Source: Candidatus Galligastranaerophilus intestinigallinarum
Lineage (GTDB): Bacteria > Cyanobacteriota > Vampirovibrionia > Gastranaerophilales > Gastranaerophilaceae
Direction of reading: 5' to 3'
Assembly (NCBI GenBank): GCA_018715855.1
Contig: DVKW01000109.1
Span: forward strand, 1 to 25,264
DNA: 25,264 bases
Below are positions 1 to 2,444 of this stretch, one piece after another (the first letter of the stretch is position 1; every line of letters begins with the position of its first letter). The notes under the pieces were generated by a model that ran no database searches, was not told the DNA's origin, and saw nothing but the letters and a program-made list of their open reading frames with translations. Made by a program: the position numbers and the translations under genes.

Positions 1-80
1 CTATAAATTAGCCTCAAAGTTCCAACAACTCGGCAATTTAGACTCAAAATCCTTATCTCAAATGTCCTGATAAACTATAC

Positions 81-391
81 TTGGATCCTGACAGGAACTT
101 AATGAGGTTAAATATATTAATGGTAAAATTCGCGCCTTGGAGACTCTGCCGACTGAAAAAGTGACTAAATGTCACTTTTGAAGGAGAGGGCAAAAGCGAA
201 GCGATTGCACAAGGGCAGGAACTTAATGAGGTTAAATATATTAATGGTGAAAATTCGCGCCTTGGAGACTCGGCCGACTGAAAAAGTGACTAAATGTCAC
301 TTTTGAAGGAGAGGGCAAAAGCGAAGCGTTTGCATCCCGACAGGAACTTAATGAGGTTAAATATATTAATGGTGAAAATTCGCGCCTGGAG
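81..391. repeat. Tandem repeat downstream of tRNA-Arg: two full ~125-bp units (92-215, 216-340) plus a partial third (341-391) that runs into the tRNA 3' end
   Basis: CAGGAACTTAATGAGGTTAAATATATTAATGGT(G)AAAATTCGCGCCT starts at 92, 216 and 341 (periods 124 and 125). Units 1 and 2 differ by one indel, two substitutions and the last 6 nt. TTGGATCCTGA (81-91) resembles TTGCATCCCGA (330-340). Confidence 0.95.
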
Positions 392-454
392 GGATTCGAA
401 CCCCCGACCTTTTGGTTCGTAGCCAAACACTCTATCCAACTGAGCTACAGGCGC
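381..454 (-). tRNA. tRNA-Arg (anticodon ACG), CCA not encoded
   Basis: The reverse complement folds as GCGCCTG TA GCTC AGTTGGATA GAGT G TTTGG CT-ACG-AA CCAAA AGGTC GGGGG TTCGAAT CCCTC CAGGCGC G. Confidence 0.97.
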
Positions 455-698
455 AAATATTAAATTTTCAAATTTCCCATGTCAGTTGGATAGAGCTTGA
501 TTTTTCCTATTGTTTGAATTTTGTTTTCAACAAAATATCAAACGGCCAACTGAGCAAGAGAGCGCAAATATTAAATTTTCAAATTTCCCATGTCAGTTAT
601 TATAGAGTTGAATTTTTCCTATTGTTTGAATTTTGTTTTCAACAAAATATCAAACGGCCAACTGAGCTACAGGCGCATAAAAATATTTAATTTTCAAA
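436..698. repeat. Tandem repeat upstream of tRNA-Arg: ~110-112-bp units starting at 436, 546 and 658 (third partial), each containing the tRNA 5' end
   Basis: CCAACTGAGC..GCGC occurs at 436, 546 and 658. Positions 658-676 are an exact copy of the 19 tRNA 5'-terminal nt (GCGCCTGTAGCTCAGTTGG on the minus strand). The unit bodies 455-545 and 566-657 are nearly identical. Confidence 0.95.
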
Positions 699-730
699 CA
701 TTTTGCCAAATGCGACAAAACAACATAACT

Positions 731-758
731 ATTCTACCCAAAAAAGCTAAATAATCAA
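731..758 (-). promoter_or_regulatory. Putative sigma70-type promoter for the tRNA-Arg locus
   Basis: Minus strand TTGATT (753-758), 16-nt spacer, TAGAAT (731-736). It lies directly after the TPR gene stop codon. Motif match only. Confidence 0.5.
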
Positions 759-2444
759 CTAAAACCTTTTGTTATTTTTAATTATTGTTTCACTGCCTCT
801 TACAATAGAATTCCAAAATTCAGATTCATGGATATTTCCCGATTTTTCAGCGATATCTGCAGCAAACTTTTTGTAGTTCAAGTCGTTTGGTTCAATTTCA
901 ACAGCTTCTTTAATATACAACATGGCATCATTATAAAAACCAAGGCCAAAGTTGCTAACAGCTGCTTGAAAATAATATTTTGCAGGCTGCGGGTTTAGTT
1001 CAAGCGCCGTTGTAATTAAGCTAAGCGCTTTTTTGTATTCTTCTTTTTTATTTAAAATTAAACCTTTAAAATAATAGCTTTCGGCATTGTTTTTATCTAA
1101 TTCAATTAATTTATCCAAAGAATTAATTGCGCTATCATATTCTTTTTTTCTGTAAAAAATTCTTGCTTTTGAATTTAAAAAGCTTGCAATTTCACCGTAA
1201 GAAGAATATTTTTCAATCAATTCTTCCGCTTTTTCATACATTTCATTATCAATCAATAAATCAACATATTCTGAAACCGTATGAATGGAATCGGGGTAAT
1301 GTTCAAGGTGTTTTTCATAAAATTCCATTGCTTTTTTATCAAGTTTTAAATCTTTATAAATTGAACCCAAAGTATCAAGAAGTGTTAAATCATCTCTAAC
1401 TTTCGGGTTTTCATTATATATTTTTTCAAGTTTTTCTTTTGCAGATACAATTTCCCCCTTTTTATATTCAACAACTGCTCTTAAAATTTCTGCCTGAACC
1501 TTAAAGTTAGACATAGGGTCAATTAAAGTTAAATTAAAAAGTGCGTTATCATAATCTTTTTGTTTTTCAAAAACCCAAGCCAGCAAAAGATACCTTTTAT
1601 CAATTGCGCTTTTTGGTTCGTTTTGTTGAATGCAAAGCGTGATAGATTTTTTTAATGTAGCAATCGCTTCATCAAACCAGTTTACATCCATATAAGCTTT
1701 TGCAAGCTCCAAATAAAATTCTTGAAAAATTCCTTTGCTTAATTTAATTGCAAGGTGGAAATTATCAATTGCTGCAAAAAAATCCTTCCTTTTAACCTGC
1801 ATTAAAGCCTTATAATAATAGCTCATAGGGTCTTTTTTAATTTTTAAAATTTCATCCATTAATTTTTCGGAATTTTTATAATCGCCTTCGTTAAAATAAA
1901 TTAAAGCAAGGTCAAATTTTGCTTCACAAAATGTGGGCGACAATTCAACCACTTTTTTTAAAATTTCTTTTTTGTTTTTATCATCTAAAAGTGAAATTAT
2001 ATATAAAATATCAGGATCGCCTTTTAATTCATCATCAAGCCCTTCATATATTTTTAAAATTTCATTTGCCCTTCCCAATTTTAAAAGCACGCTGAAATAT
2101 TTAACAAAATCTAATGGTTTCTTTGAATGTTCGCAAATTTTTTGAATTAAATTAAGGGCTTTATTATATTCTTTTAAAAGAAAATGAATTTCATAGAGCT
2201 TGTTTTGGCTATGTTCGTGGTTTTTATCAATCTCTAAAACCTTTTCATATTGTTCACTTGCTCTTTCATAATTTTTCAATAAAAAATGCAAATCTGCGAT
2301 AGATGAAATAACTTCTACTGTTGTTTTCTCATCCACATCATCACTTAAAACTTTGTATAAAACCTCAATTGCTTCCTTATAGAGCTTTTGGTTTTTTAGT
2401 TCAAAAGATTGTTTAATATATTTTATGTAATCATTATTTTCCAT
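759..2444 (-). CDS. Tetratricopeptide-repeat (TPR) protein
   Basis: 561-aa ORF with many ~34-aa helical repeats, e.g. AESYYFKGLILNKKEEYKKALSLITTALELNP and AKYYFQAAVSNFGLGFYNDAMLYIKEAVEIEP. Confidence 0.85.
   Translation of the reverse strand: MENNDYIKYIKQSFELKNQKLYKEAIEVLYKVLSDDVDEKTTVEVISSIADLHFLLKNYERASEQYEKVLEIDKNHEHSQNKLYEIHFLLKEYNKALNLIQKICEHSKKPLDFVKYFSVLLKLGRANEILKIYEGLDDELKGDPDILYIISLLDDKNKKEILKKVVELSPTFCEAKFDLALIYFNEGDYKNSEKLMDEILKIKKDPMSYYYKALMQVKRKDFFAAIDNFHLAIKLSKGIFQEFYLELAKAYMDVNWFDEAIATLKKSITLCIQQNEPKSAIDKRYLLLAWVFEKQKDYDNALFNLTLIDPMSNFKVQAEILRAVVEYKKGEIVSAKEKLEKIYNENPKVRDDLTLLDTLGSIYKDLKLDKKAMEFYEKHLEHYPDSIHTVSEYVDLLIDNEMYEKAEELIEKYSSYGEIASFLNSKARIFYRKKEYDSAINSLDKLIELDKNNAESYYFKGLILNKKEEYKKALSLITTALELNPQPAKYYFQAAVSNFGLGFYNDAMLYIKEAVEIEPNDLNYKKFAADIAEKSGNIHESEFWNSIVRGSETIIKNNKRF

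Follow-up and report, generated by a model that had tools for sequence, protein, structure and literature searches.

How did a tRNA-Arg gene come to be followed by repeated copies of its own 3' end, each joined to the same short insert, and what are these units? The stretch of DNA analysed here, which we call the window, comprises 25,264 nt from Candidatus Galligastranaerophilus intestinigallinarum, a species that according to public runs occurs in chicken-gut metagenomes. It corresponds to bases 1-25,264 of contig C1 in a short-read MAG of 1.61 Mb (32% G+C, 252 contigs, 85.5% complete). The repeat array lies at the start of this contig, and because the window opens contig C1, both the copy number and the sequence to the left of the array are limited by the assembly. 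The locus contains the following features.

Positions 381-454, minus strand: intact tRNA-Arg(ACG) gene, CCA not encoded (Rfam RF00005, 70.3 bits; ARAGORN 380-455).
Positions 256-380, minus strand: unit A, the tRNA-proximal unit, with a core HMM match at 268-313; both hairpins fold (z = -3.1).
Unit A, outer parts, minus strand: trailer copy at 341-380; variable hairpin, from TCGGGA, at 315-340; CCCTCTCC at 308-315.
Unit A, inner parts, minus strand: conserved hairpin with loop ACATTTAGT at 282-304; TCGGCCGAGT at 268-277; 3'-end mimic CTCCAAGGCGCG at 256-267.
Positions 131-255, minus strand: unit B, with a core HMM match at 143-188 (fold z = -3.6).
Unit B, outer parts, minus strand: trailer copy at 216-255; variable hairpin, from CCCTTG, at 190-215; CCCTCTCC at 183-190.
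Unit B, inner parts, minus strand: conserved hairpin at 157-179; TCGGCAGAGT at 143-152; 3'-end mimic at 131-142.
Positions 80-130, minus strand: terminal partial unit, made of a trailer copy at 92-130 (one base shorter) and TCAGGATCCAAG at 80-91, where it breaks off.
Positions 1-79, minus strand: beginning of an island adjoining the array, at the end of the contig.
Positions 436-698, minus strand: two upstream units of ~112 bp that belong to another insert family.

Tandem Repeats Finder gave a period of 125 bp with 2.4 copies, 94% matches and a score of 541 over 90-391, and the array itself spans 92-391. Each full unit terminates in the tRNA-Arg 3' end plus one A: CGCGCCTTGGAG is found exactly at 131-142 and 256-267, and the tRNA ends with CGCGCCTGGAG at 381-391. 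On the tRNA strand all three copies of this end are followed by a common flank of 39-40 nt (92-130, 216-255 and 341-380). The coordinates and the repeat finder thus confirm the ~125-bp units with a tRNA 3'-end mimic and a ~40-nt flank that an earlier sequence-only reading had described. The order of parts on the tRNA strand is a 40-nt trailer copy, a 26-nt variable hairpin, CCCTCTCC, a 23-nt hairpin with loop ATTTA, TCGGC(A/C)GAGT and finally CTCCAAGGCGCG, which equals the last 11 nt of tRNA-Arg with one extra A. A comparison of units 131-255 and 256-380 shows 7 differences in 125 positions; five of them cluster in 210-215 versus 335-340, and in the fold of unit B CCCTTG pairs with CAAGG of the 3'-end mimic. 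In the terminal partial unit TCAGGATCCAAG corresponds to the first 12 nt of the variable hairpin; beyond it lie unique sequence and the contig end. Neither terminal inverted repeats nor a target-site duplication were found in the window units.

The sequence-only reading had further proposed that a unit is a degenerate T-arm split by an insert at the T-loop, pointing to a GTCGGG similarity. This 6-mer occurs in the tRNA-proximal unit only (335-341 region), the others having GCCCTTG and, in the terminal partial copy, GTCAGG; in one unit, taken alone, it is not above chance. The units also gave no score with the Rfam tRNA covariance model (RF00005) even at E<=10, at which only 381-454 scored, and no other Rfam family matched them in window 1-1000 at that threshold. 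A simple scan of 1-800 returned no intrinsic terminator. A CRISPR array was discarded, as both parts of the unit are the same within the array and diverse spacers are lacking.

The two ~112-bp units upstream of the gene have the architecture of the downstream units with a different insert, and occur also in the related genomes G011 and G001. Each combines a promoter-like CTGACA-17-TAATAT, a tRNA 5' fragment (the first 19 nt; exact at 658-676, variant at 546-565) and a long hairpin. The leader also contains a perfect 14-nt inverted copy of the D-arm (430-443 / 482-495) that overlaps a -35-like hexamer, and some downstream units of G017 and G042 have inverted T-arm copies at the equivalent relative position.

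Searches for the insert at other tRNA genes, as the sequence-only reading had suggested, did find it, both in the window genome and in relatives. Its constant part is a 46-nt core that consists of CCTCTC, a covarying hairpin with loop ACATTTAGT, and TCGGCAGAGT; the hairpin has 9-13 bp, with an A-tract before and a T-tract after it. When one unit was compared by BLAST with 40 relatives, matches came from 19 of the 24 genomes in the same family and from none of the 16 in other families of the order. A pattern search of a species-representative collection matched the core in at least 120 contigs. Almost every one bears the label Gastranaerophilales, Melainabacteria or Vampirovibrio, and the complete MEL.A1 chromosome and a HiFi chromosome are among them. 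Viral contigs yielded a single copy, in a host flank, and a single chance match within coding sequence. In an alignment of 35 cores the loop and end positions are invariant and six of eight hairpin pairs show compensatory double changes; the units are thus more than a degenerate scar. The constant CCTCTC and TCGGCAGAGT enclose at least five distinct hairpin tops, in every case with the A-tract and T-tract. A start with GTCGG is seen in the variable hairpin only, and in some copies only. No published description of this repeat, or of an integration cassette of its kind, was found by full-text searches of the literature.

The window genome itself has the core at two further tRNA genes. On contig C153 the 3' end and trailer of tRNA-Met(CAT) are followed by a core that is 97% identical to the Arg core, a copy of the tRNA-Met end (CTCCGGGCCCA) and a diverged second trailer, and contig C203 has an inverted core upstream of tRNA-Thr(GGT). 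Contigs C153 (position 1) and C106 (position 9300) end at the same base in tRNA-Met and have 131 nt in common before they diverge, C153 into the standard core and C106 into a variant hairpin without TCGGCAGAGT, which indicates two gene copies or strain variation.

MEL.A1 shows a different distribution: most of its 40 cores, 25 of which share one model score, are distant from tRNAs and embedded in an intergenic repeat of ~90 nt or ~600 nt. The ~600-nt repeat (CP017245) is non-coding, has ~10 copies (L182:40-650 and eight other loci, one spanning the record start), and holds the core within a ~90-nt module whose ends are imperfectly complementary.

About 150 copies obey one rule: the TCGGCAGAGT end is joined to a fragment of a stable-RNA gene that reads outward from the gene interior. 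The core takes the position of a loop (T-loop, D-loop or 5S loop) in a partial gene copy located directly outside the intact gene. The 3' copies are joined between positions 62 and 63 of the tRNA, two nt inside the T-stem 3' strand, as seen at Arg, Met, Phe, Lys, Glu, Gln and Leu-TAG/CAG/CAA. The 5' copies (Val, Met, Pro, Leu-GAG/TAG and Thr) have the entire module in inverse orientation, with the joint in the region of the D-arm. The fragment runs to the end of the transcription unit, either a few nt past the terminator T-run or, for 5' copies, past the -35 box; inward of the core the gene is represented by just 10-25 nt, and its loop lacks 5-6 nt. Across the family, units measure 104-200 bp and the core neighbours at least 12 different RNA genes.

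The HiFi genome, G042, illustrates the rule. Nineteen of its 20 cores lie beside a tRNA or 5S gene, the twentieth being a weak, unconfirmed match near tRNA-Phe, and arrays of 2-4 units are present in this chromosome. Inverted D-loop copies stand upstream of Val, Met, Pro and Leu. At 5S rRNA, the intact gene, trailer and terminator are followed twice by 5S(22-33)-core-5S(40-end)-trailer-terminator. These partial 5S copies lie at L279:979-1094 and 640-960, and in each the core replaces five loop nt.

The T-arm proposal fares better for the family than for the window. In the 'simple' tRNA copies the cognate T-stem 5' strand and TTC make up the left piece; 28% of copies can form all three testable T-stem pairs, versus 7% of mismatched controls, and zero pairs are found in 0% of copies versus 28% of these controls. 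Its restriction to T-loops did not hold, because the core also occurs inverted in D-loops, in the 5S loop and, in MEL.A1, mostly off tRNAs. Interruption of a T-loop is therefore partly supported: it describes the family correctly, is weak for the window and is too narrow overall. Two other readings of the core were rejected. A three-way-junction or ribozyme-like structure is not borne out by the outer closing stem, which has a mean of 5.05 pairs versus 4.93 in shuffled sequence, and although GCCGACTGAA resembles the Neisseria uptake sequence, its copy number is far too low for a DUS-like role.

Two loci bear on which copy of the gene end came with the element. Firstly, two units whose cores differ stand behind the tRNA-Glu(CTC) gene of G002. 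CCA and a trailer with a terminator are present at the end of the gene itself and in the first repeat; the distal copy has no CCA and passes directly into unrelated DNA. Units, CCA and such a trailer are all absent from tRNA-Glu of four sister genomes. Secondly, the proximal and distal trailers of tRNA-Met on C153 are ~70% alike by manual comparison, with compensatory changes in the terminator stem. At both genes the proximal end thus has the marks of one supplied by the element.

The modules also mark the positions of islands, which across relatives range from 4 to 21 kb. At tRNA-Arg of G001 a unit is followed by a 21-kb island that ends in a complete core and a decayed Arg 3' end and trailer; it encodes a chloramphenicol acetyltransferase (CAT), type I restriction-modification (R-M), an OLD-like ATPase, DUF5131 and two reverse transcriptases. 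G003 has a bracketed 8-kb segment at tRNA-Leu(CAG), a 4-kb segment at tRNA-Phe and two further breaks at the same core-loop position, and in G017 an island lies between the tRNA-proximal unit and a distal core plus tRNA end. In G009 the first Arg unit has an island within the loop of its core hairpin, and each joint shows TTCG; without this island, two units and a partial trailer would remain, as in the window. Contig C246 of the window genome has a tRNA-Arg T-arm, trailer and variable hairpin followed by the BipA side, with neither a full unit nor an island; it represents either another allele of the population or an additional copy of the gene. For the G042 island, a search for a distal core with a Leu-CAA end found none.

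On the minus strand, 25 nt of the window (56-80) match at 96% the sequence after the broken core hairpin at tRNA-Arg of G009; therefore, the window array abuts an island. The G009 island-start sequence is in turn homologous to the left end of the 21-kb defence island of G001. Window 1-95 has no significant BLAST similarity to the G001 island end, and the link between window and G001 rests on G009 because G009 matches both. Direct repeats of a tRNA 3' segment, the pattern by which att sites are recognised, flank inserted DNA in the window and in G001, G003, G009 and G017. The anatomy of the units, their distribution and their bracketing of islands are direct observations.

Some island contents deserve mention in their own right. 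On contig C6 of G001 (L224:1154-14565) type I R-M genes stand beside a small tyrosine recombinase, together with an OLD-like AAA_15/TOPRIM protein, and the two adjacent reverse transcriptases possibly form a defence RT pair. The 8-kb segment at tRNA-Leu(CAG) of G003 (L056:2067-10154) is filled by an ORF of 2,695 aa without a Pfam match. Glycosyltransferase genes (GT8, GT2, Stealth) recur beside unit arrays (L122:4141-7304, L056:16196-18247, L001:6072-8429), and GT2 was the commonest neighbour in 77 scanned loci.

Which enzyme could act on the core? No integrase is encoded within the window, and the recurrent neighbours within 2.5 kb of cores include no recombinase, being glycosyltransferases, EF-Tu and similar genes instead. 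A candidate is a tyrosine recombinase of ~185 aa with a Xer-like catalytic domain alone, for which we coin the name SmInt. It was found in 17 of 24 family genomes versus 2 of 16 outside. In 41 genomes, core and SmInt were both present in 17, cores only in 3, SmInt only in 3 and neither in 18, counts in which one genus predominates. Immediately downstream of a tRNA, and in the same orientation, SmInt is found in G042, G017, G002, G013 and G004; it follows a core by 250 nt in G004 (C123) and lies inside the Arg islands of G001 and G009. Such tRNA-, core- or island-linked genes make up about a quarter of the copies examined, and chance, as roughly estimated from the density of tRNA genes, would give a few per cent. 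By tblastn, SmInt was present at one of 77 core-bearing loci, its own locus only, and the sole copy of the window genome (contig C245) is away from tRNAs. Because it is not generally next to cores, SmInt is a candidate enzyme that acts at most in trans. The G001 copy beside the type I R-M genes could be an hsdS-shuffling invertase instead.

From these observations we infer a mobile form, a recombination step, an order of arrival and an enzyme. The units may be miniature, non-autonomous integration cassettes that carry a replacement gene end and accumulate in tandem, a reading to which we give nearly, though not quite, an even chance. A small circular or otherwise mobile unit would recombine with the gene inside the common gene-end segment, by either a site-specific or a Campbell-type event. 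The cassette would supply a new gene end and terminator and push the old end outward, following the target-restoring logic of tRNA-integrating islands, and an array could grow by repeated entry or unequal exchange. The core hairpin would then act as the insertion site for large islands, so that an array forms a row of landing pads. The enzyme would work in trans, with the ~185-aa Xer-like SmInt as candidate.

Several findings count for such cassettes: a common core after the 3' ends of Arg, Met, Phe, Lys, Glu and four tRNA-Leu genes, always joined at 62/63, the cores beside tRNA and 5S genes in G042, the CCA-bearing copies of G002 and the differing trailers of C153, islands between and inside cores, contig C246, the compensatory changes and the co-occurrence with SmInt. 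Against them count that no recombinase regularly adjoins cores and that the C245 SmInt is off-tRNA. One core serving more than ten gene targets is unusual for tyrosine integrases, and in a circular unit the 46-nt core would part two target-like pieces, which is not a classical C-O-C' attP. Moreover, the off-tRNA cores of MEL.A1 look like transposition rather than gene-end integration, and neither a circular form nor an excision product nor an activity was seen.

How does the module compare with known systems? Islands that integrate at tRNA and tmRNA genes, their tandem accretion and their cis-mobilizable remnants (CIMEs) have been reviewed (PMC5704250), and tandem islands linked to ssrA were described for Dehalococcoides (PMC3146451). 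As in these islands, direct repeats of a gene 3' end bracket DNA and the target is restored by the inserted DNA; elements stack at one gene, and small recombinase-less remnants persist between att sites. Unlike these islands, the units are 104-200 bp long and one core is common to more than ten target genes. Modules also occur at 5' ends, inverted and with a promoter, and in 5S rRNA, the core parts the left target-like piece from the gene end, and an adjacent integrase is not the rule. The att scheme of tRNA islands has the identity block begin at the anticodon loop, at the T-loop or at the very 3' end. Here the block begins at position 63, two nt past the T-loop, and the D-loop and 5S copies are outside this scheme.

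REP and REPIN elements, which are moved by single-copy RAYT transposases (PMC3116915), share with the module that they are short, hairpin-forming, intergenic and lineage-specific, with stem covariation and bursts of identical copies (as in MEL.A1), and RAYT genes exist in some genomes of this lineage. However, in the core alignment there is neither a GTAG motif nor an inverted doublet, RAYT is missing from most core genomes, and REPINs lack duplicated gene ends. MITEs are similarly small, non-coding, multi-copy and non-autonomous, but the tRNA-linked copies have neither terminal inverted repeats nor a short target-site duplication; they have a gene-end repeat of 50-130 bp, with 5-6 loop nt lost. 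In MEL.A1 copies the end complementarity is imperfect. An integron attC site is conserved mainly as a hairpin with variable stem sequence, and units stand head-to-tail, as here. Integrons further have cargo at the hairpin and a Xer/IntI-like tyrosine recombinase, paralleled here by the islands and the candidate SmInt. In contrast to integrons, neither an IntI-type integrase nor attI nor a Pc platform was found, the arrays are attached to stable-RNA genes, and every unit repeats one gene end instead of different genes. The module has features of att-site accretion, REPINs and attC cassettes and departs from each in defining respects.

We place the module with tRNA-linked site-specific integration, as a variant of it, and there is a real chance that it is a new kind of element. 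A bolder version, which we consider a minority possibility, is a new class of miniature integrative element for the hairpin loops of stable RNAs, with a SmInt-type enzyme in trans and a hairpin that docks islands. With the same reserve, the replacement gene end with its terminator or promoter may make insertion harmless, and the result may be an integron-like landing-pad system in Melainabacteria for defence and glycosyltransferase islands.

Among the rival explanations, the one that survives best is that a REP/MITE-like hairpin element was put into hairpin loops by an enzyme acting on ssDNA, a RAYT-type Y1 transposase or similar; we regard this as unlikely. The partial gene copies would pre-exist as island scars or arise secondarily, and insertions would survive only in such dispensable pseudo-copies. 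The target is indeed always a hairpin loop (T-loop, opposite-strand D-loop, 5S, or the core's own loop), and there is a mild replichore bias of core orientation (17:5 versus 8:10). MEL.A1, with its 25 cores of identical score, has a single-copy Y1 (IS200-like) transposase of 176 aa flanked by GTAG-type REPs, its sole match among the transposase families tested, and the G-rich and C-rich arms flanking its core resemble the Y1-flanking REP. Still, a Y1 gene is present in 2 of 11 genomes of the genus though cores are in 11 of 11, Y1_Tnp was not found in the window genome (85.5% complete), and the gene also occurs in G015, which has no cores. A RAYT link was rejected on this phyletic pattern and on the gene flanks, since RAYTs are flanked by their own REPs, which differ from the cores. 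Nor would transposition explain why the partial copy invariably reaches from 10-25 nt within the site as far as the terminator or promoter, or the CCA-bearing proximal copies of G002. Single-copy RAYT-type Y1 genes between GTAG(G)-hairpin REPs occur at L213 (1285-1324 and 1923-1961), L214, L215, L229, L231, L232 and L234, and in several genomes a REP copy lies inside the RAYT coding sequence itself. As for other insertion sequences, a search of five genomes found TnpB, IS110 and DDE_Tnp_1 in none of them (in MEL.A1 no TnpB above the cut-off) and rve in only some. MEL.A1, with neither IS110, rve, DDE_Tnp_1 nor TnpB above the cut-off, led us to reject IS110, IS200-605 and DDE elements.

Quite unlikely, too, is that the module is a functional element selected by the host (a bidirectional terminator, a processing signal, or a small RNA or decoy with a tRNA 3'-end mimic), inherited vertically at tRNA loci and forming arrays solely through unequal crossing-over. 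The same tRNA species (Leu-TAG, Phe, Met, Leu-GAG) carry it in several genera, the A-tract/stem/T-tract plan is kept, with compensatory changes, despite full sequence replacement in five variants, and the core is 97% conserved between the Arg and Met loci, where the trailers have diverged. RNA-library contigs span 233-387, and the tRNA and the TPR gene next to it are covered to a similar depth, but such contigs can show neither transcription nor the ends of molecules. A terminator function is at odds with the empty scan of 1-800 and a core stem of only two or three G-C pairs, the outer closing stem is no better than shuffled sequence, Rfam gives no match, and inverted copies upstream of genes would be antisense. 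Presence also varies among close relatives (tRNA-Glu units only in G002), hairpin variants are swapped between sister genomes at tRNA-Met, and islands interrupt the hairpin.

We consider it very unlikely that the units derive from RNA, i.e., that a chimeric transcript starting ~12 nt before the core and ending at the terminator was reverse-transcribed, circularised and integrated by homologous recombination in the common gene-end segment. Units of the 3' type and of 5S do end a few nt after the T-run and start at a short, fairly constant distance before the core, and the G001 tRNA-Arg island has two reverse transcriptases. However, the inverted 5'-type units would need antisense transcripts through the promoter, reverse transcriptases are not regularly nearby, and neither poly(A)-like nor template-jump signatures were seen. 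Lastly, an artefact of assembly, or simple replication slippage at a single locus, suggested by an array at the contig end of a short-read MAG in which public-run unitigs break, has a negligible probability and is already contradicted by the 2-4-unit arrays of the HiFi chromosome and by a core in >120 contigs of many assemblies at no fewer than 12 RNA genes.

Integration at tRNA genes is the classic route for islands, and the sites are normally set by one integrase and one gene. Here, one short module attaches to many RNA genes, at either end, in an uncultured gut lineage, and islands for defence, resistance (CAT) and surface glycans are located at it. If the integration cassettes proposed here are a portable landing pad, this would account for the plasticity of these small genomes (1.6-2.2 Mb) and for the breaks of MAGs at tRNA genes, and would offer a compact, testable recombination site together with a ~185-aa recombinase. 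Even as a family of scars, the partial copy that runs to the end of the transcription unit with a core in its loop provides a key for the annotation of Gastranaerophilales genomes.
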